Assembly: GCA_963717145.1 (NCBI GenBank)
Contig: OY970325.1
Location: 4,608,001-4,672,000 of the forward strand
Reading direction: 5' to 3'
DNA length: 64,000 nt
Origin: an uncultured Armatimonadetes bacterium
Lineage (GTDB): Bacteria; Armatimonadota; UBA5829; DTJY01
How positions within the stretch are numbered: the first letter of the stretch is position 1; each line of letters begins with the position of its first letter. The translations under genes and the position numbers were made by a program. The notes under the pieces are model-generated. The model ran no database searches, was not told where the DNA came from, and was given only the letters and a program-made list of their open reading frames with translations. This document shows, piece by piece, positions 17,181 to 56,860 of this stretch.

Positions 17181-19412
17181 ATGCCATACTCACTCCACCA
17201 GCAGCTCAAGCTGTTCAGTCGCGACCGCTTCGAGGAACTCTGCGGCCAACTCCTCAAGGCCGAGGACCCCTCGGTCGTCCCCGTCGAGGGCGCGGGCGGC
17301 GACGAGGGCGTCGACATATACAAGGGGCCGCTCGACACACCGAAGAACGAGCGCGCGGGCGAGAAGCTCCACGTCTGGCAGGTCAAGCACTTCCCCACGG
17401 GCCTAGGCGTGAGCCAGAAGAAACAGGCCAGAGAGTCCCTCAAGCGGGTGATCGCGACCCAGGACCCGGATAGCTGGACTCTCTGCGTCCCCTTCGAGTT
17501 CTCGCTCGGCGACCGCAGGTGGCTCGAAGACCTGCGGAAGGAATACCCCGGGCGCATCACTGAGCCGCTCGACGCCCCGGCGATCATGGCGCTCCTCGGC
17601 AAGCCGGAGAACCGGTCTCTTCTCGATGCGCACTTCCTCCTGCCGACCGATCAGCGGATCGCGAAGGAAGTGCTCGACCTCCTGACCGACTTCGACCTCG
17701 TGAGCGAGCGCCTGAGTGAGGAGAAGCTGCCCACGAAGACCGAGAGCGAGTTCTACAACGGCGCTGTCGCCGACTGGAAGGACATCTATGACGACCTGGA
17801 CGCCCGACGGGAGATCATCGGCGAGCTGTGGGACTTCGTGCTCGAGGCCGAGAAGAGCACCGGGGCGCTCGTGCCGTTCGCGGTGCTCACCGGGCTGAGC
17901 GGGGAGGGGAAGTCGACCGTCCTGCGTCGTCTCGCCGCCGAGTTGGTCCGCTCCGGGCGCAACGAGGTCTTCTGGCACAAGCCCGGCCGGAACGACCTGT
18001 CCGCCGAGCAGTTCTGCCATATGCCCAGAGGCGCGCTGGTCTATATCTTCATCGACAGCATCATGCTCTTTGGCCCGGACGCGATCGGGGGATTCCTCCA
18101 GCGGCTGAGGGACTTCCCGATCCGGCCGATCGTGATCTCAGCGGCGATCAACTCCCAATGGGACGGGTCAAGGCTGAATGTCGGCCAGTTCGCCGATGTC
18201 CGGGAGATCGAACTGGCGCACATGAGCCTGGCCGATGTGGAAACGCTTCTCGACAAGCTCTCCGAGGACGAAGAGCGTGCATCCGAGAACCTCGGCAAGC
18301 TGGCTAGGCTGAGCAGGGAGCAGCAGGTCAGCTGGTTCACGAAGGATGCCAAGCGGCAGCTCCTGGTTGCGCTGATCGAGGCCAAGGGCGGGCAGGGGTT
18401 CGAGCAGCACGTACTCGACGAGCTTCGGAAGCTCGACGGGGGTGAGGATGACCTCGTCCGTCAGGCCTGCATCTACGTCAGCGCCCTCCACCGCTTCGAC
18501 CTTCGCATGCCGAAGCGCCTCCTCCAGCGCCTCCTCGGGGAGGATGTCCTCCTCGAAGACCAGGTCCTCTCCAAGACCCACGGCCTCATCACCCTGATTT
18601 CCGACGAAGAGGAGTCGGTGATCACCCGCCATACTCTTGTCGCCCAGATCATCTACAAGTCCGAAGCCGGCGACAGCCCTGAGTGGTGCGAGCGGATTAT
18701 TGACGCGGGGGGGGAGGAAGATGACTTCCTGCTCTATTTCTGGTTGAGCGCAACGGTGGGTGCGAATCTCCGTCTGGCGATGCATCTGATAAGGCGTGAG
18801 AAGAAAGGCTCTTTCGGGGATGTCGGGATGGCTCCCACCTGGCCCTTATGGGATGAGCGTTGTGCCGAGCTCATGCGCAGCCGTGCATTCTACAGGAAGG
18901 CAACGCAAGAGGAGCCTGAGAATGCTAATCCCTGGTGCGAATGGGCGCATGTAGAGAACGCACTGGGGAACACCGGGGAGAAGGAAGACCCCGAGGCCTA
19001 CACCGCGAGGTGGCTGTTCATGAGGGCGACAGAGGCGGATCCGCACTACGCTTGGCTTTGGGAACAGTGGGCGGACATGGAGAAGGACGATGGAAACTGG
19101 GATGCTGCCGAGGGGTTGTACCGACGATCATTGAAGGAGACAGGCAAACCGCTATACCGCAGCCATGTGCATCACAAGTTGGGCGTCATGTTCTACTCGC
19201 TCGGTCGCATGGACGAAGCATGTGAGAACTTGGAACTGGCGGTCACCGAGATGTCTGGAGAATGGATGTCACACCACTGGCTCGCGCGTGCCTACCTGGA
19301 AAGACATCGTGTCGCGGACGCGGAGCGCCATTGCTGCATTGCGCTCAGACTCCAGCCAGACGACAGGGATACGCAGGAACTGCATGAGAAGATAAAGCGT
19401 GCCCGAGAGTAA
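17181..19412 (+). CDS. Restriction-endonuclease-like + P-loop NTPase + TPR protein (Avs/STAND-like defence candidate)
   Basis: FEELC..GGDEGVDI..QVK (Mrr-like PD-(D/E)XK); GLSGEGKST Walker A; YIFID Walker B; TPR-like C-term. Confidence 0.75.
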   Translation: MPYSLHQQLKLFSRDRFEELCGQLLKAEDPSVVPVEGAGGDEGVDIYKGPLDTPKNERAGEKLHVWQVKHFPTGLGVSQKKQARESLKRVIATQDPDSWTLCVPFEFSLGDRRWLEDLRKEYPGRITEPLDAPAIMALLGKPENRSLLDAHFLLPTDQRIAKEVLDLLTDFDLVSERLSEEKLPTKTESEFYNGAVADWKDIYDDLDARREIIGELWDFVLEAEKSTGALVPFAVLTGLSGEGKSTVLRRLAAELVRSGRNEVFWHKPGRNDLSAEQFCHMPRGALVYIFIDSIMLFGPDAIGGFLQRLRDFPIRPIVISAAINSQWDGSRLNVGQFADVREIELAHMSLADVETLLDKLSEDEERASENLGKLARLSREQQVSWFTKDAKRQLLVALIEAKGGQGFEQHVLDELRKLDGGEDDLVRQACIYVSALHRFDLRMPKRLLQRLLGEDVLLEDQVLSKTHGLITLISDEEESVITRHTLVAQIIYKSEAGDSPEWCERIIDAGGEEDDFLLYFWLSATVGANLRLAMHLIRREKKGSFGDVGMAPTWPLWDERCAELMRSRAFYRKATQEEPENANPWCEWAHVENALGNTGEKEDPEAYTARWLFMRATEADPHYAWLWEQWADMEKDDGNWDAAEGLYRRSLKETGKPLYRSHVHHKLGVMFYSLGRMDEACENLELAVTEMSGEWMSHHWLARAYLERHRVADAERHCCIALRLQPDDRDTQELHEKIKRARE

Positions 19413-19651
19413 GGGAAGCGCCGTCGGTGAGAATAGGTCGCACGTGCGGTTGAGACCGCGGGCGACGAAAGGCACGAAGTCCGCCTCCGCGGACTGGGGC
19501 TGTGCCTCGGCAGACCGCCGATCTCCCTCCGAGTCAACTGCTGTTGGTGCGAGGCCTCGGAGTGTGACATCTGATTGGCTGAGTCTCCCGTCCATGCTAT
19601 AATAAGGCGGCGCTAGGCCGTCGATTCTACTTGAATGAGGAGGTCATCTTC

Positions 19652-21025
19652 ATGGCACTGGTTCGTCCCCGGCTCAATGATCACTACGACCTTCCATTCA
19701 CGCAATCGGACGTAGACTTCGCCATTCCTCTGCTGGACGAGGACATCCCTCTGTATGCTGATCCATTCCTGCTGTGGAACTCCCCCTCACAGCAGGACAA
19801 CTCCCTCCATACTACTCTGATCAGCGCCTTCAATCATTTGGGACGCATGGCTCGGAAGGGCAAGGAGGATGAGGCAGCAGCGATACTCGTTGCCCTCTCT
19901 GAGTGCCGCGAGGTCGGACTGGGGAGCGCTCGCAACAAGCAGGGCCATAGGATAGGGAAGAAGACCGCTCTGGAGATTCTGTCGCTCTTCGGCAAGATTC
20001 CACAGGTGGCAGAGCAGGGATTTGAGCATATCGAGGAGGTCCAGCTTTTCGTGGACCAGATTGCGGCGGACCGCATAAGCGACATCACCTGCAGCGTGGT
20101 CAAGTCATTCCTGATCGACTTCACGATCGACCAGTGTGTGAAGTGGGGGATACCGAGGACAGCAGTAGTCGTGACGGAACTGCTTGACACTAAGCGCATG
20201 CGTCTGACCTCGGAGACTCTTGAACTGCCTGTGAACCCGAACAGTGGAAGTCCTGTGCTCCTAGTGCCAAAGCGATGGCTGCGATACCAGCCGTGGATCA
20301 ACTACGAGGACTATTTCGATGATGCGTACTGCAAAGCTGTTGCTCAGCCAGGCGATGGCAAGGTCGATAGGATAGCCGTACTGAACTACAACCGTCAGAA
20401 CTACGGCATGGTGCAGACCTACGTGCGCGAGAAAGAGCGTACGCAGGCCGACTGCAAGAACGATCCGCTGTTCAAGGCGATACCGATCATTTCGGCGAAG
20501 CGAAAGCTGGCGGAGATACGCAGACTGCCTACCGGTAAGACCGGCGACGCGGACAAACGATATGAGGATCTCGCGTGCCAGTTGATGGCGTCGATGCTTT
20601 ACCCTCAACTGGATTTCGCCGATGAGCAGAGCAGGACGGATTCCGGCGTCTTGATTCGTGACCTGATCTTCTACAACAACCGAGCAATGGACTTCCTGCG
20701 GGACATCCGCGAGGACTATGGAAGCCGTCAGATCGTCTTCGAACTCAAGAACGTAGCGAAGATCGAGCGAGAGCACATAAACCAGATCAACCGATACATG
20801 GCGGACCAATTCGGCAAGTTTGGCGTGATTCTTACGCGGAACCCCTTGCCCAAAGCCATGTTTCAGAGTACCATAGACCTATGGTCAGGTCAGCGAAGGT
20901 GCATTATCGCGCTCACTGACATTGATGTCGAGATGATGGTGACTCTGTTTGAGAGCAAGCAGCGGTTGCCAGCGGAAGTACTCAAGAAGGTATACTTAGA
21001 GTTCACTCGTGCTTGTCCAGCATGA
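19652..21025 (+). CDS. Hypothetical protein with a C-terminal PD-(D/E)XK nuclease-like region
   Basis: YEDL..IRDLIFYN..IVFELKN..HINQINRY; GAGGAGG RBS; TGCTATAAT at 19595. Confidence 0.65.
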   Translation: MALVRPRLNDHYDLPFTQSDVDFAIPLLDEDIPLYADPFLLWNSPSQQDNSLHTTLISAFNHLGRMARKGKEDEAAAILVALSECREVGLGSARNKQGHRIGKKTALEILSLFGKIPQVAEQGFEHIEEVQLFVDQIAADRISDITCSVVKSFLIDFTIDQCVKWGIPRTAVVVTELLDTKRMRLTSETLELPVNPNSGSPVLLVPKRWLRYQPWINYEDYFDDAYCKAVAQPGDGKVDRIAVLNYNRQNYGMVQTYVREKERTQADCKNDPLFKAIPIISAKRKLAEIRRLPTGKTGDADKRYEDLACQLMASMLYPQLDFADEQSRTDSGVLIRDLIFYNNRAMDFLRDIREDYGSRQIVFELKNVAKIEREHINQINRYMADQFGKFGVILTRNPLPKAMFQSTIDLWSGQRRCIIALTDIDVEMMVTLFESKQRLPAEVLKKVYLEFTRACPA

Positions 21026-21046
21026 CAGCGGAAAGGAGTATAGGCG

Positions 21047-21436
21047 ATGAAGGCTGAGGATGTCGATTTCTTTGAGAAGGTGCAGGCGCAGTTGGGACAG
21101 CTACACAAAGAGATGAGTGCTCTTGCCAAGAGCAAGGCCGACAACCCCGTCAACAAGTTCAAGCTGAAGCTAATGAACCAGAAGTTGGCGGAAGCCAACA
21201 CTATCCTCGTAGGTGGCTTCGCCCCGTTCGAGGACTTCGAGACTTTTCCCGAGGAGGACTTACCATCCAACAGTGACGTCGTGATGGTGCTATCCCAGTA
21301 TCTGGAGTGTCTTGAGGGATGGAGATCGGCCAACGTAGTATACAACCCCAGCGACTACGAATGGTATTGGAAGACTGATGATCGTAGCAGCATCAAGTCA
21401 CGACAACCGTCGAGGTTCCGAGTGAACGCAAAGTGA
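21047..21436 (+). CDS. Hypothetical protein, paralog A
   Basis: AAGGAG RBS; shares NKFKL, PF.DF, LPSNSDV, SQYL, WYW with the next gene. Confidence 0.85.
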   Translation: MKAEDVDFFEKVQAQLGQLHKEMSALAKSKADNPVNKFKLKLMNQKLAEANTILVGGFAPFEDFETFPEEDLPSNSDVVMVLSQYLECLEGWRSANVVYNPSDYEWYWKTDDRSSIKSRQPSRFRVNAK

Positions 21437-21462
21437 TGCAGAGAGGCGCAAAGCCAGGGACG

Positions 21463-21840
21463 ATGAAGAGGCAAGAAGTAGATGCGTTCGAGGCGCTCGA
21501 AGGACAGCTTGCCAGCTTGTACGACGAGATGCAGACCCTCGTAAAGAAGAGCCCGAATGACTTGATGAATAAGTTCAAGTTGCAGCTTGTAAACTCGATC
21601 CTGAAGCGGGTTAACGAGATGCTCGGTGATAAGCGCAAGCCGTTCCCCGATTTCTGCATGTTCGATCAGGACGTCTTACCTTCAAACAGCGATGTTCTCG
21701 TCATCGTCTCCCAGTATCTGAGTAGCATGGAGGAACTCAGAGTGGCCAACATCCACATGAGCGGGGGACGGTGGTACTGGACCATGACTGACGATTCCTC
21801 GACTAGGAGTGCCGCAACCCCGAGGAGGCTGCGCAAGTAG
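21463..21840 (+). CDS. Hypothetical protein, paralog B
   Basis: MKRQEVDAFE aligns with MKAEDVDFFE of paralog A. Confidence 0.85.
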   Translation: MKRQEVDAFEALEGQLASLYDEMQTLVKKSPNDLMNKFKLQLVNSILKRVNEMLGDKRKPFPDFCMFDQDVLPSNSDVLVIVSQYLSSMEELRVANIHMSGGRWYWTMTDDSSTRSAATPRRLRK

Positions 21841-22089
21841 TGGGATAGCCTGAGGTCGGCAGCTTGTGTTGAGCGAGATGCGGGACATCGATCAGCCTAT
21901 CAGATGTAAACAGCGCGGATTCGTTTCCTGTTTCATGGGGATCAGATCGGACGATCCCTAGTACCTTCTCGATTCCAGCTCTTCGCCACAGAAGTGCCCG
22001 CAAATGGAACCCCTATACCCCGTAGCCACCCCTAAAGATAGCACACTCCGATGCCGAAGATAGGGGTAGATCGCTCCATGCGCCGTTGC

Positions 22090-22290
22090 CCCTGATATCG
22101 AAACATCACAGGCGGCTATCCGGCGCGAAACGGTGCTTATCCCGGGCGAAGGGATACGTATCCCGGGCGAAAAGATAGCTATCCCGGGCGGCGGGATATG
22201 TATCTCGCCGGGAAGGATATGTATCTCGGCGCGGGGGATAGCGATCCCTCGCACCGGTATAGCTATCCCCGGCGGACCGATAGCGATCGG
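22090..22290. repeat. Phased array, 10 units, exact 21-bp period, palindromic core GATANNTATC
   Basis: (T/G)ATC at 22096, 22117, 22138, 22159, 22180, 22201, 22222, 22243, 22264, 22285. Confidence 0.9.
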
Positions 22291-22355
22291 ATTCGTAACG
22301 GGGGATGGGCGGGCGGATCGAGCGACCGTGCGACCCTCGGGAGGAGGAAATCATC

Positions 22356-23015
22356 GTGGCAAGAGATTACATCGTTCGGAAGGACCAGGAGTTCAATGCC
22401 TGGCTCGCGAACTTCATCACCAGTCTGAGTGCGCATTCGGCGGAATTCGGCCTTGTGCCGGAGGACCTGCTGCCCATCGAGGGCGAATCCACCGCCTTCG
22501 ATTCCGCGCTTACCTTACTGGAGCAGCGGCGAATCGCATTGAACTCGGCTTCGAAGAACAAGATGAGCAGGCGGGTCTCGACGGAGGCGGTCCTGCGCCC
22601 GCTCGTCCGCCGTATCACGGGCCATCCCGCGATGACCGACGGACTCCTGGGCCAACTGGGCCTGCCGGTTCGGAGAGTCCGCAAAGGAATCCTGCCGGTC
22701 GGACCAGAGGTCCCGGCGATACTCACCGAGGCCGCCCCGGGCCGGGTGATCATTCATTTTGGGACCGCGCCGGCGAACGAGCAGCGCAATGGAAAACCGG
22801 GATGGGCGAAGGGATGCAACATCTACCGCAGCAAGGCCGGCGAGTCTGACTTCCGGATGGTCGGCTTCGCGAGCGCATCTCCGTATGTCGATGAGGTGGT
22901 AGGAGCGGGATCGGATTACACGTACTACGTCCAGTATCGGGGAACGAAGGCCACCCAACTGGGTCAAGGCTCGCATCAGATGACCGTCGCGGCCCGTGGG
23001 TTGGAGGCGGCGTAG
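22356..23015 (+). CDS. Hypothetical protein (predicted helical N-term + FN3/Ig-like C-term), array-associated, copy 1
   Basis: GGAGGAGG RBS + GTG; homologous to 55786..56460. Confidence 0.85.
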   Translation: MARDYIVRKDQEFNAWLANFITSLSAHSAEFGLVPEDLLPIEGESTAFDSALTLLEQRRIALNSASKNKMSRRVSTEAVLRPLVRRITGHPAMTDGLLGQLGLPVRRVRKGILPVGPEVPAILTEAAPGRVIIHFGTAPANEQRNGKPGWAKGCNIYRSKAGESDFRMVGFASASPYVDEVVGAGSDYTYYVQYRGTKATQLGQGSHQMTVAARGLEAA

Positions 23016-23099
23016 GGGGAATGGTTGATGGGGGATGGTTCATGGTTGATGCCGGATCATTCCCCGTTTGCCATCGACCATCAGCCATCAACCATTCCC
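23007..23099. repeat. Heptamer (ATGGTTG)-based inverted repeat; first 51 bp shared with 55744-55794
   Basis: GGGAATGGTTGATGG...CCATCAACCATTCCC between convergent genes. Confidence 0.88.
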
Positions 23100-23653
23100 T
23101 ACATGTATTTCTCGCCGAGCCGGTCGAGGAGCGCGTGATATCGCTCGTGGACTCCCGGCCCGATGCGCTCCTGCTCGACCCGCTCGAATTCAGTCGTCAA
23201 CCTCGCATGCTCGTCCTCGCACAGATGCTGCTCGGCCATGCAGAAGAGGATGTTGTTCTCCTTCTCGATGTGCTCGGTGAGAAGCTGAACGTATCCATGG
23301 GCCGCCGATGCGAACGCCTTCCGCGCATCCGGATCGCCCTCACGGATGCCGGGCAGCGCATCGGCCATCCCTCGGACGAACTCCCGCCCACATTTGTGCT
23401 CGGTCAGCATCACGCCGATCGGCCCGCCCTCCCTCGGGATTCCGACCTTCTCGAGAGCGGGGAACAGCAGGTCCTCTTCCTTCCCATGGTGGCATCGGTC
23501 GGCAAATGTCTTGATGAAGTCCACCAGGCCGTCCAGATCGTCGGCCTCCACCGTGCGTCCGGCCTCGAGGTCGTCGGCCAGGCGGTCGAGGACGGCGATC
23601 GCGACCTTGATCCCCTCGTGTTCGTCTCGCAGTTCCTGGGTTGCGTATGTCAT
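23099..23653 (-). CDS. Hemerythrin domain protein, copy 1
   Basis: LRDEH, CHHGKEEDLLF, MLTEH, EHIEKENNILF. Confidence 0.92.
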   Translation of the reverse strand: MTYATQELRDEHEGIKVAIAVLDRLADDLEAGRTVEADDLDGLVDFIKTFADRCHHGKEEDLLFPALEKVGIPREGGPIGVMLTEHKCGREFVRGMADALPGIREGDPDARKAFASAAHGYVQLLTEHIEKENNILFCMAEQHLCEDEHARLTTEFERVEQERIGPGVHERYHALLDRLGEKYM

Positions 23654-51005: not shown

Positions 51006-52979
51006 ATGTTCGACGAACTTGATAAGATACTTCCGCGCGTCACCAAGCCCGCGCGGTACACAGGTGGCGAATATAACGCTGTGGTGAAAGACCATGCCTC
51101 AGTGCAGGTCAAATTCGCCCTGGCGTTCCCCGATACCTACGAGATCGGCATGTCGAATCTCGGAGTCCGCATCCTCTACCACACGCTCAACAAGCGAGAC
51201 GACACCGCCGCCGAGCGAGTCTTCGCCCCATGGACTGACATGGAGGACGAGATGCGGCGGAACGAGATCCCGCTTTTCAGCATCGAAACCCGCACGCCGC
51301 TCCGCGAGTTCGACATCATCGGCTTCTCCCTCGGCTATGAGATGGCGTACACCACGATGGTGAATATGCTCGATCTCGCCGGGTTGCCGGTCCGCTCATC
51401 CGAGCGCGATGACCAGTTGCCGCTCGTGATCGCCGGTGGATGCTGCACCGTCAACCCCGAGCCGATCGCGGAGTTCATCGACGCGTTCGTCATTGGCGAG
51501 GGCGAGGAGATCGTCCACGAGATCATCGACCTCGTGAAGGAGCACAAGTCCGAGGGCAAGGCGTCCCTGCTGCGGCGACTGTCACAGGTCCAAGGCGTAT
51601 ACGTTCCCAGCTTCTACGATGTCTCCTACAACGACGACGGCACGATCCGCGAAGTCACCCCGCGCGACGCCGATGTCCCGAAGGTCGTCACGCGTCGCCT
51701 CATCTGGGACTTCGAACACGCGGATTTCCCGGACAGGCCCGTGATGCCGTTCATCGAGACGGTGCATGACCGCATCGCCCTGGAGATCATGCGCGGGTGC
51801 TCTCGTGGATGTCGGTTCTGTCAGGCAGGCACAGTCTACCGCCCGGTCCGCGAGCGCTCGAAACAGAAGCTGATGGAAACCGCGGAGGCGCTCGTCGAGA
51901 ACACAGGCTACGACGAGATTGCGCTCATGTCCCTCTCCGCCACCGATCACAGCGAGATCAGCGGTCTTGTGGCCGACATCATCAAGACATACGAGCCCCA
52001 AAGGATCGGGGTGTCGCTCCCGTCGATCCGAGTCGATGCGCCGTGCGTCGACCTCGCCGCCGAGATACAGAAGGTGCGGAAGAGCGGGCTGACACTCGCG
52101 CCGGAAGCCGGCACTCAGCGGATGCGCGATGTGATCAACAAGAACGTGACCGAGGAGGATCTCTTCAGCGCGGTCAGTGAGGCGTTCAAGTGCGGTTGGC
52201 AGACCGTCAAGCTCTACTTCATGATCGGCCTCCCGACCGAGACCGAGGAGGACCTGCGCGGGATCGCCCGGCTCGCGATGAAGGTCACTCAGATCGGGCG
52301 TCAAGTCATGGGCCGGAAGCCGACTGTGAACGTCAGCGTCGCCTCGTTCGTCCCGAAGCCGCATACGCCGTTTCAGTGGCGTGCACAGGATACTGTCGAG
52401 GAACTCGAGAGAAAGCAGACGCTCGTCCGATACGCGATCACCGATCGTGCCGTCAAGGTTAGCTGGCACGATTCGAAGACCAGCATGCTCGAGGGAGTCC
52501 TCGCTCGAGGTGACCGCAGGGTGGGGGATGTCATCTATCGCGCCTGGCAGAACGGCAGCCGGTTCGATGCATGGCACGAGCATTTCAACTACCAGGCGTG
52601 GCTCGACGCCTTCCGGGAGGCCGGAATCGATCCGTCCTTCTATGCGAGCCGCACGAGAAGCTACGATGAGGTCCTCCCGTGGGATCATATCGACTGCGGC
52701 GTGACAAAGGCGTTCCTCCGGGCCGAGAATGAGCGCGCCGAGAAGGGCGATACAACCGCCGACTGCCGGCTGGATAGATGTTCCGGCTGTGGACTGACAA
52801 GGCTTCTGCCGCCGTCACCGGAGTACAACTCCGGTGACAACATGTCAGGATGCGGTGACAACACCTTAGGTACCGGTGACAACATTCTCAAAGACCGTTG
52901 TCACCGGAGTTGTACTCCGGTGACCAAGACTCCTCGTTGTCACCGGAGTTGTACTCCGGTGACGGTCACGGGGGAATGA
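51006..52979 (+). CDS. TIGR03960-type B12-binding radical SAM protein
   Basis: KPARYTGGE, FPDTYEIGMSNLG, RGCSRGCRFCQAG, APEAG, KLYFMIGLPTE, FVPKPHTPFQW. Confidence 0.92.
   Translation: MFDELDKILPRVTKPARYTGGEYNAVVKDHASVQVKFALAFPDTYEIGMSNLGVRILYHTLNKRDDTAAERVFAPWTDMEDEMRRNEIPLFSIETRTPLREFDIIGFSLGYEMAYTTMVNMLDLAGLPVRSSERDDQLPLVIAGGCCTVNPEPIAEFIDAFVIGEGEEIVHEIIDLVKEHKSEGKASLLRRLSQVQGVYVPSFYDVSYNDDGTIREVTPRDADVPKVVTRRLIWDFEHADFPDRPVMPFIETVHDRIALEIMRGCSRGCRFCQAGTVYRPVRERSKQKLMETAEALVENTGYDEIALMSLSATDHSEISGLVADIIKTYEPQRIGVSLPSIRVDAPCVDLAAEIQKVRKSGLTLAPEAGTQRMRDVINKNVTEEDLFSAVSEAFKCGWQTVKLYFMIGLPTETEEDLRGIARLAMKVTQIGRQVMGRKPTVNVSVASFVPKPHTPFQWRAQDTVEELERKQTLVRYAITDRAVKVSWHDSKTSMLEGVLARGDRRVGDVIYRAWQNGSRFDAWHEHFNYQAWLDAFREAGIDPSFYASRTRSYDEVLPWDHIDCGVTKAFLRAENERAEKGDTTADCRLDRCSGCGLTRLLPPSPEYNSGDNMSGCGDNTLGTGDNILKDRCHRSCTPVTKTPRCHRSCTPVTVTGE
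52814..52963. repeat. Cluster of GTCACCGGAG-N5-CTCCGGTGAC hairpins forming the radical SAM C-terminal tail
   Basis: Copies at 52814, 52900, 52939; CGGTGACAACA at 21-bp spacing (52832, 52853, 52874). Confidence 0.85.
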
Positions 52980-55557: not shown

Positions 55558-55635
55558 GATGTCCCCCTTACGAAGGGGGACCGGCCTCCGGGCACTCACG
55601 ATGTCCCCCTTACGAAGGGGGACCGGCCTCCGGGC
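55558..55635. repeat. Tandem 36-bp direct repeat containing the hairpin TCCCCCTTACGAAGGGGGA
   Basis: 55558-55593 is identical to 55600-55635. Confidence 0.88.
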
Positions 55636-55785
55636 CGAGGGGGTTTCGTCCCCGACGTGTCCGACCAGAACCAACAAGGCCCGTGGATCACCCGATCCGC
55701 GGGCCTTCTCAACTCGGCTGGTTGGTGCGGACCTGAACTCAGAATCCGGCATCAACCATCAACCATCCCCCATCAACCATTCCCC

Positions 55786-56460
55786 CTACGCCGCAATCGT
55801 CGCGCTCTGGAGATCGGACCAGCCGCCCTTCTTGCCGTCCTTGTAGACCCAGCGCATCTTATAGTGCGCCTGCTTGTTTCCATCGCCGGGCGGGAACGGC
55901 ACAGCAAGCGTATTCCGGGTCGACATATTGACATACCGCATATCGGCCTCGGGGTCCGCCGGTGGGTCCCCGACCTTCACCCAGACCTCGACCGCCCTGA
56001 CGCCTTCGGGCTTGCCCTTTGTGATGTCGTTCGCGTTCTGGTTCCGGATGCGGAGAGTATGCCTCAGGAGGGCGCTGATGTTGATACCTGCGACCGGCTT
56101 ATCCCGTGACCCCTCCGGACCCGGCGGGGGTGAAGACATGCCGCGTTTCGGCAGCCCGAGCGAGGCGCGCTGCTGGTTTGTCATATTCGGATGCCCCTGG
56201 ATGCGCGCCGCCATCGACCTGATCTGCTTCGCGAGGGTAGCCCTCTTGGCCTTCTTAGCCGAACACAAGCCTCTGGCAGTGGTCCGCGCCCTATCATGAT
56301 CGGCCCTGGCCTGAGCGAACTCCGGCGTTGTGGCGACCAGTTCGGCCAGGTCCGCCTCCGTCAGTCCGAACTGCTCCGGATTGGCGGTGAGGTAAGCTAC
56401 ATAGCGGTTCGCCCACTCCTGTAGTTTCAGATCGCTCTCCGGCAAATAGTCTCTTCCCAC
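55786..56460 (-). CDS. Hypothetical protein, array-associated, copy 2 (homolog of 22356..23015)
   Basis: GGAGG RBS + GTG; shared RDY, FGL..DL, HP.MT, LGLP, GKP motifs. Confidence 0.85.
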   Translation of the reverse strand: MGRDYLPESDLKLQEWANRYVAYLTANPEQFGLTEADLAELVATTPEFAQARADHDRARTTARGLCSAKKAKRATLAKQIRSMAARIQGHPNMTNQQRASLGLPKRGMSSPPPGPEGSRDKPVAGINISALLRHTLRIRNQNANDITKGKPEGVRAVEVWVKVGDPPADPEADMRYVNMSTRNTLAVPFPPGDGNKQAHYKMRWVYKDGKKGGWSDLQSATIAA

Positions 56461-56572
56461 GATGATGATACCTCCAGGCTGGCGTGACCGACGGGAGTCG
56501 GTCCATGATCTCGCGGCCGGCCTCTGATGCCGGCCACCCGGTATAATCATCGGGTATCGATGGCAGTATCTT

Positions 56573-56770
56573 TAGGGGAGAACTCCCGGCTCTACCTCCG
56601 GGAGTTCTTGTCACCATACCCGAGTACTCTCGGCAGCATGCCCAAGAGTTCTTGCCACTAGCCCCAAGAGCTGACGGCAACACACCCGAGAACTCCGGGC
56701 ACTGCACCCAGGAGTTCTCGGCACTACACCCGGAAGCTCACGCCACTATACCCGAGAGCCCTCGGCAAAG
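56573..56770. repeat. Phased array, 9 units, exact 22-bp period, palindromic core ~CCGAGAGCTCTCGG
   Basis: Units start at 56573, 56595, 56617, 56639, 56661, 56683, 56705, 56727, 56749. Confidence 0.85.
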
Positions 56771-56860
56771 CGGCGTAGAACCCAGGAATGACACGCTAGG
56801 GAGCCGACATCGTCATGCTGAACTCGATTCAGCACCCACGGTGGAGGCTCCCTGTGTGGA

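Follow-up and report, generated by a model that had tools for sequence, protein, structure and literature searches.

Tandem repeats placed beside a single gene occur in iteron/initiator systems, among them plasmid Rep_3 replicons and the lambda ori iterons with the O protein. Iterons are direct repeats of ~17–22 bp, set about two helical turns apart at or upstream of one gene; their sequence is lineage-specific, and secondary repeat clusters are found elsewhere. The F sopC centromere comprises twelve 43-bp repeats, each of which contains a dyad and is bound by SopB. In type III toxin–antitoxin systems (ToxIN, CptIN, TenpIN), as described in PMC3401426, the array lies between the promoter and the protein gene, repeats and protein are cognate, the loci reside in defence contexts, and a palindromic terminator between repeats and gene serves as a criterion.

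The protein family described here resembles the iteron systems in that phased repeats with a period of 21–22 (or 41–43) bp are located next to the gene at 22 of 25 copies in one genome. In contrast to those systems, its protein is not of the Rep_3 or winged-helix type (no Pfam match; AF2 predicts a helical hairpin plus Fn3 domain), all 25 copies are chromosomal, and homologues were not found in the plasmid and phage records searched. Units of 43 bp (or 21 bp) with short dyads beside a small-protein gene recall sopC, but the family loci lack a ParA/ParB-type partner and exist in many copies on one chromosome. Our literature search found nothing on the family or on 21-bp arrays beside its genes, and the layout matches no described system.

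The window, i.e., the entire stretch of 64,000 nucleotides analysed here, spans positions 4,608,001–4,672,000 in a genome made up of one contig (5.37 Mb; 60.6% G+C) and contains two family genes (Table 1). The focal and the second protein share 27% identity over 184 residues (E = 4e-16) and are thus diverged homologues, as proposed by the first-pass annotation. Direct reading of both genes likewise bears out its description of their ends: GTG follows GGAGG in the common context ATCATCGTGG.AAGAGA.TA, the proteins terminate in AA, and neither has a hydrophobic N-terminus or signal peptide.

Table 1. Features of the two family loci in the window (focal locus, 22031..23100, +; second locus, 55744..56774, −)
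Locus	Feature	Position	Strand	Description
Focal	Promoter-like bipartite motif	22031..22061	+	CCTAAAGA, 17 nt, GAAGAT; upstream of the array; from sequence reading and the multi-locus motif; match at −325 in the multi-locus motif scan
Focal	Tandem array, period 21 bp	22090..22290	.	Between promoter-like motif and ribosome-binding site
Focal	GGAGG ribosome-binding site and family gene	22340..23015	+	GTG at 22356, stop at 23013–23015; 219 aa; subfamily A
Focal	Long heptamer-repeat hairpin (GGTTGAT/GGTTCAT)	23016..23100	+	Directly 3′ of the stop codon; dispersed genomic repeat
Second	Heptamer-repeat element	55744..55785	−	3′ of the family gene
Second	Family gene	55786..56460	−	224 aa; subfamily B; C-terminus SATIAA
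Second	Promoter-like motif	56546..56576	−	CCTAAAGA, 17 nt, GATGAT; between array and gene; match at −116
Second	Tandem array	56586..56774 (approx.)	. (gene on −)	Period ~22 bp, 8–9 units; upstream of the promoter-like motif

At the focal locus, seven GATANNTATC cores with at most one mismatch follow each other at an exact spacing of 21 bp (22153..22279). An eighth core with two mismatches is located at 22132, while the phased units at 22111 and 22090 retain the TATC half alone, as judged by direct reading. The earlier count of 10 units at exactly 21 bp is therefore correct if the degenerate units are included, but only seven cores stay within one mismatch; TRF assigns 7.2 copies of period 21 to 22138..22288. 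With up to one mismatch, the core occurs at 20 sites in the 64-kb window, seven of which are within the focal array. Its dyad core GGGATAGCTATCCC is more symmetric than that of shuffled units (p = 0.013), and the variable positions cluster in the linker (p = 0.037). The second array also contains a dyad core (CCGAGAGCTCTCGG, p = 0.003 versus shuffled units). Strict periodicity had been claimed for both genes; an array is indeed present upstream of each, but the second is less regular, with an autocorrelation fraction of 0.68 and only 2.5 copies detected by TRF.

The layout, previously noted as present twice, exists in 25 genomic copies. A whole-genome search retrieved 25 family members, and an iterative profile search over every genome ORF with a length of 90 aa or more converged to the identical set. 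All 25 paralogues are intact and encode 215–227 aa, with start codons assigned from the ribosome-binding site and the alignment. They fall into two subfamilies, A (n = 10, including the focal gene) and B (n = 15, including the second window gene), the latter with the C-terminus SATIAA. Beyond this genome, when 1.84 billion cluster representatives were searched with a profile, 489 matched at E ≤ 1e-30 and 3373 did so at the looser cut-off of E ≤ 1e-10, where some of the weaker matches may reflect Fn3 alone; the source names seen for homologues all read “hypothetical protein”. Within the phylum, 37 of 401 searched genomes, our own counted, have a match at E ≤ 1e-15 when up to seven candidates per genome are scored. 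Four of ten other genomes of the same taxonomic family have matches, 2–13 each, and a search of 30 genomes that belong to other families within the class found none.

We defined a strong array by a match fraction of at least 0.6 in a sliding autocorrelation (lags 10–49, 84-bp window). Within 800 bp upstream, such an array with a period of 20–22 or 41–43 bp is found at 22 of the 25 paralogues; of the other three, #9 stays at 0.57 (lag 42), #12 has lag 24, and #24 shows, by eye, a two-copy repeat of ~85 bp. At the same lags, strong arrays occur in 6 of 788 control gene upstreams and in 4 of 600 random windows, corresponding to an occupancy of 88% for family upstreams versus 0.8% for controls, with control and neighbour genes called by crude ORF and GC3 rules. 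Fisher's test of family upstreams against control genes gives p of about 1e-34, whereby the paralogues are not independent of each other. The pattern is retained in other genomes: a strong array is present at 17 of the 19 loci from four genomes within the same taxonomic family and, across the phylum, at 11 of 19 distant loci (20 were obtained, one of which was dropped for too little upstream sequence). At 16 of these 19 distant loci, the best lag is 21 or 42, compared to 12–13% in controls. Since most homologues have upstream periodic arrays, as revealed by the autocorrelation check that the first-pass annotation had suggested, the gene–array association survives; it is conserved and real. One distant homologue, L066 (G361:C42), contains an in-frame TAG 14 codons into the gene and is possibly a pseudogene; despite this, a 42-bp-period array still lies upstream.

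Conversely, arrays independent of the family had been named as a potential objection. TRF analysis of the whole genome displays period peaks at 7, 8, 21, and 42. After merging (period 20–24 or 41–44, at least 63 bp, heptamer-derived repeats excluded), 21 of 63 arrays lie upstream of a family gene, within 800 bp of its start codon, and 42 elsewhere, the latter comprising 41- to 44-bp REP-like hairpin repeats, coding repeats, and about a dozen family-like arrays by other genes. Thus, such arrays show strong enrichment at family genes, yet they are not confined to them. Coding repeats were ruled out for the family arrays, as periods of 22, 41, and 43 are incompatible with a reading frame.

Besides the array, the family upstreams share a bipartite motif. 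When 7-mers are counted without bias across 60 family upstreams drawn from over 20 genomes, CTAAAGA ranks first (13 loci, 32× background), followed by CGATAAT (17 loci, 24×), GATAATG, and CCGATAA, all of which are placed above the ribosome-binding-site word. The combined motif CCT[AG][AC]AGA-N17-GAYAAT reaches a stringent score at 20 of the 60 loci. In our genome, CCGAYAAT is found upstream of 15 of the 25 family genes, with 257 genome-wide occurrences, close to the 232 expected from base composition, and 6 of the 12 best matches to the bipartite motif are family upstreams. One of the non-family genes behind a match is, to judge from its N-terminal sequence, presumably topoisomerase I. Given such non-family genes among the best matches, the motif may represent a strong general promoter type of this organism. 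As a generic sigma-70 scan finds no promoter at either window locus, we infer promoter function from the motif and refer to it as promoter-like throughout. Its position relative to the array differs between the subfamilies. In subfamily A, the motif is located upstream of the array, which would place the array within a leader of about 200–500 nt; in subfamily B, the array ends 0–106 bp upstream of the motif. A leader hairpin, GGCGGC-TAATCTGTAACACAA-GCCGCC, is conserved 3′ of GAYAAT in #17, #20, #23, and #25 of subfamily B and has no Rfam match.

Downstream of the family stop codons, heptamer repeats are usually followed by a typical intrinsic terminator; runs of GGTTGAT, GCGGAAT, and GTCAGAA fill the space between the stop codon and this ordinary terminator. 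The focal 3′ hairpin is predicted to be very stable (MFE −70 kcal/mol for the first 130 nt). However, the heptamer element is not specific to the system, of which it had been proposed to form a conserved part: it is a dispersed repeat with matches in 64 genomic 200-bp bins, and genome TRF lists 272 rows of period 7 and 189 rows of period 8. Abundant intergenic heptamer direct repeats have reportedly been described in Beggiatoaceae (PMC4679880).

Based on this anatomy, we tentatively favour a reading in which the array is a cis-regulatory DNA element that acts on transcription of its gene and is bound by a putative factor, and we put its chances somewhat short of even. Each gene would constitute a stand-alone unit, composed of promoter-like motif, strong ribosome-binding site, gene, heptamer hairpin plus terminator, and a private array. 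The array, with its units of ~21 or 42 bp placed against the promoter-like motif, would form a stack of sites that recur every two helical turns and hence all lie on the same helix face. On this stack, a multimeric DNA-binding factor could assemble and thereby set transcription of that single paralogue. In subfamily A, the array would be part of the transcribed leader and might act as a roadblock or silencer, while in subfamily B, 0–106 bp upstream of the −35-like element, it might serve as an upstream site. That it works at the DNA level is suggested by the location of the array on either side of the motif, by the absence of a strand bias in folding, and by the unit of about two helical turns. 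As unit length may be inherited under concerted evolution, the argument from one face of the helix is suggestive only.

Within 450 bp upstream of the 25 copies, nearly each gene has a distinct tandem repeat, and BLAST of each array against the genome finds few relatives. The statement that arrays differ between copies thus holds across the family, with each array being sequence-unique. Relatives do exist for some types: the #17 type recurs at 546 kb and 1805 kb, the #16 type at 4716 kb, a piece of the #23 array at 546 kb, and a #3-like array at 895 kb, whereas the arrays of #21 and #22 match one another. The 43-bp array of #17 (459.6 kb) is nearly unchanged at 546.4 kb and 1805.4 kb (L058 2875..3498; L059 2884..3173). 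At 546 kb, it is situated upstream of a GHL10 glycosidase-like gene and fused to #23-type units; at 1805 kb, it lies between convergent genes for an Mrr-type endonuclease and a KdpD-like protein. An array between convergent genes cannot regulate a promoter there, which counts against the cis-regulatory reading. On the other hand, the conserved cores of some arrays together with the recurrence of array types elsewhere fit sequence-specific recognition in at least some arrays.

Both window arrays are palindromic, as the first-pass annotation had it, but this does not extend to the family: dyad symmetry exceeds that of shuffled units in only 4 of 24 arrays (#1, #4, #17, and #19). The two window arrays are among these four, which accounts for the initial impression of palindromes. 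The arrays have no motif in common, and an AT-rich core or curvature signal across them does not rise above random 21-mers, which weighs against the cis-regulatory reading. In 6 of 32 arrays, with the focal one among them, the positions that vary are clustered within the unit (combined p = 0.024), which at the sequence level is modest evidence of a core-and-linker constraint. Several dyads have centres of 0–2 nt and thus suit double-stranded DNA rather than hairpins. RNA folding reveals no consistent strand bias, neither for the 24 own-genome arrays (14 sense versus 9 antisense) nor for subfamily A loci of relatives, where the sense strand has no advantage (5 sense versus 9 antisense); the first-pass proposal of an array transcribed as a string of hairpins gains no support from this comparison. 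An Rfam search at E ≤ 1 over 19 loci gave just sub-threshold matches of miRNA hairpins to long hairpins, and a known RNA family was rejected on this basis.

These properties bear on a system that would operate at the RNA level, like type III toxin–antitoxin loci, with transcribed repeat units binding the protein, sequestering it, or controlling its translation. The order motif–array–gene of subfamily A equals the ToxIN layout, several copies reside in defence-rich neighbourhoods, and PMC3401426, from which this layout is taken, expects further type III families. Yet the likeness covers subfamily A only, and there it depends on the putative promoter; in subfamily B, the array precedes the promoter-like motif and is hence outside the presumed transcript. 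The family units (21–22 or 41–43 nt) are degenerate, they fold without strand bias, and some of their dyads cannot form hairpins because of the 0- to 2-nt centres. A terminator-like hairpin with a T-run between array and gene, one of the criteria given in PMC3401426, is present at only 1 of 25 loci. Moreover, the protein is not ToxN-like: neither Pfam (two window proteins) nor PADLOC (25 members) returned a match of the ToxN, CptN, or TenpN type, and the predicted fold is not that of an endoribonuclease. Compared with type III loci as portrayed in PMC3401426, a type III toxin–antitoxin assignment fails on the terminator and on the protein and, with the promoter being putative, does not fit the subfamily B layout; we regard an RNA-level mechanism of this kind as improbable. 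Repeat-based type III toxin–antitoxin screens would catch these family loci.

Comparison of orthologous loci illustrates how fast the arrays change. In two congeneric genomes, array cores are held in common, while the arrays are ~80% identical versus ~92% for flanks and genes, as estimated from the alignment. In one orthologue, a homogenised change destroys the palindrome in most units, and another orthologous pair from two congeneric genomes differs by one unit-sized indel. Further, higher-order periods of 42/43 bp and 63 bp occur within arrays. From the sequences, this turnover is concerted evolution, and its rapid, homogenised character fits a function independent of sequence. Accordingly, the array might serve as a tuning knob or contingency element in which repetitiveness itself matters: unequal recombination would alter the number of units and shift expression of the paralogue heritably and reversibly, while the sequence drifts and homogenises and the 21-bp unit length is merely inherited. 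Fast turnover with homogenised substitutions, the one-unit indel between orthologues, higher-order periods typical of satellite evolution, arrays without common motif or composition, and a protein without DNA-binding features are all in line with this explanation. It sits less well with persistence across phylum-level divergence, for which selection is needed, or with the conserved dyad cores and clustered variable positions of some arrays, and we consider it unlikely.

In the recently duplicated pair #21/#22, the likeness extends from −298 to +243, with 91% identity over 1212 bp. As it covers the whole unit, array, gene, and 3′ region move as one module. Duplication as a unit, together with array copies away from any promoter and a genome rich in other tandem repeats, would also be expected if the arrays were satellite DNA without function, carried along by a gene cassette that is mobile or duplicates rapidly. 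Against this speak the 88% occupancy at family upstreams versus 0.8% in controls and the retention of arrays in distant genomes despite the deletion bias of bacterial genomes, so that we rate the satellite explanation as very improbable. A conserved neighbour gene was not found, the largest neighbour cluster comprising 4 of 25 loci. A phage or plasmid origin was likewise unsupported: tblastn gave no match in 72,556 plasmid and 50,697 phage records, viral contigs gave none either, in scans sensitive to close relatives only, and the 25 copies are chromosomal.

The factor that would bind the array in the cis-regulatory reading could be the product of the adjacent gene. Being the sole thing that travels with the array, this protein is the most economical candidate, although we give it only a low probability of being the array-binding factor. 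Its predicted fold combines an N-terminal helical hairpin with a C-terminal Fn3 domain. For the focal protein, the AF2 model (pLDDT 90.7) places helices at residues 10–26, 35–88, and 95–101 and an Fn3 sandwich at 113–218; the latter is a seven-stranded β-sandwich, as in the Fn3 domain superfamily. The family differs from Fn3 domain proteins in that the Pfam fn3 model remains unmatched, a signal peptide is absent, and the N-terminal helical hairpin has no assigned family. For the focal protein, Pfam finds no family at E ≤ 1, fn3 included, and searches of Pfam, PHROG, NCBIfam, and PADLOC gave no meaningful family match; among the 25 members, PADLOC reports solely weak unrelated matches (Rod_CreS, TmtA, and Cas7d, one protein each). 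The N-domain profile has no significant match in PDB sequences (best E 0.15). Its fold was compared solely via the Atlas model of one homologue, for which hypothetical proteins of several phyla were the only look-alikes apart from a weak similarity to generic long helical hairpins. The predicted fold contains no HTH, RHH, or winged helix, and a helical hairpin plus Fn3 is, as modelled, no known DNA-binding fold. Distant members retain the two-domain plan with an Fn3-like sequence type that differs. Loci L076 and L078–L082 of distant genomes, for instance, code for this N-terminal helical domain fused to another Fn3-like sequence type, and Atlas clusters of 143–145 aa suggest versions without the Fn3 domain.

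In the family alignment, the N-domain is the best-conserved part of the protein and contains the conserved basic residues K69, R81, R86, and R98. The median pI is 6.0 for the whole protein and 5.3 for the N-domain, and the majority of members are acidic. Analogous to iteron/Rep or lambda ori/O, each protein might bind its own array DNA and autoregulate, which would amount to 25 orthogonal pairs. Such cognate self-recognition could explain why the adjacent gene alone co-segregates with each unique array and why a conserved neighbour gene is absent; array types #17, #16, and #23 recur at other loci in the manner of secondary sites, and the N-domain offers the basic set of K69, R81, R86, and R98. 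The mostly acidic proteins and the lack of a known DNA-binding fold, with neither HTH, RHH, nor winged helix next to the helical hairpin and Fn3, weaken self-binding. Moreover, the N-domain is best conserved, yet the arrays are wholly different. We therefore regard recognition and autoregulation at the DNA level as rather unlikely, and even the broader proposal that the protein of each paralogue recognises its own array, be it as DNA or as leader RNA, carries a low probability.

The defence context noted for the focal copy is confirmed. Two defence candidates are located directly upstream of the focal module (17181..21840): a 743-aa protein whose N-terminus is LmuA-like and which also has TPR repeats and an NTPase domain of the nSTAND5 type, and PDC-M36, a candidate system in PADLOC, represented by a single A gene (E = 7e-229) and two B genes in tandem. 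From their sequences, many family neighbours look defence-related.

The family is thus widespread and unannotated, includes look-alike clusters of a homologue from several phyla, and now has a conserved, testable signature. A fixed unit length with free sequence beside one family across a phylum is unexplained by known bacterial regulation, and the answer would be either a novel cis-regulatory architecture or a novel class of cognate protein–nucleic-acid pairs. In the case of cognate pairs, the family would provide a ready-made set of orthogonal parts. If self-recognition applied, a single genome would hold ~25 naturally diversified orthogonal protein–nucleic-acid pairs, built on a helical hairpin plus Fn3 scaffold that is no known nucleic-acid-binding fold, and these pairs may act as private switches in defence-rich regions.

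Two further repeat types occur in the window. A small 21-bp-phased array of GGTGACAAC units (52831..52960; TRF 2.8 copies), with no relation to the family, occupies the junction between a 657-aa ORF and the one after it; inverted copies come next, within GTTGTCACCGGAGTTGTACTCCGGTGAC. REP-like repeats of 41–44 bp, which form GC-rich hairpins of the GGCCGGTCCCCCTTCGTAAGGGGGAC and GCCCCTACGG types, are present at 55560..55640 as well as at about a dozen genomic sites and explain many of the TRF arrays with periods of 41–44.
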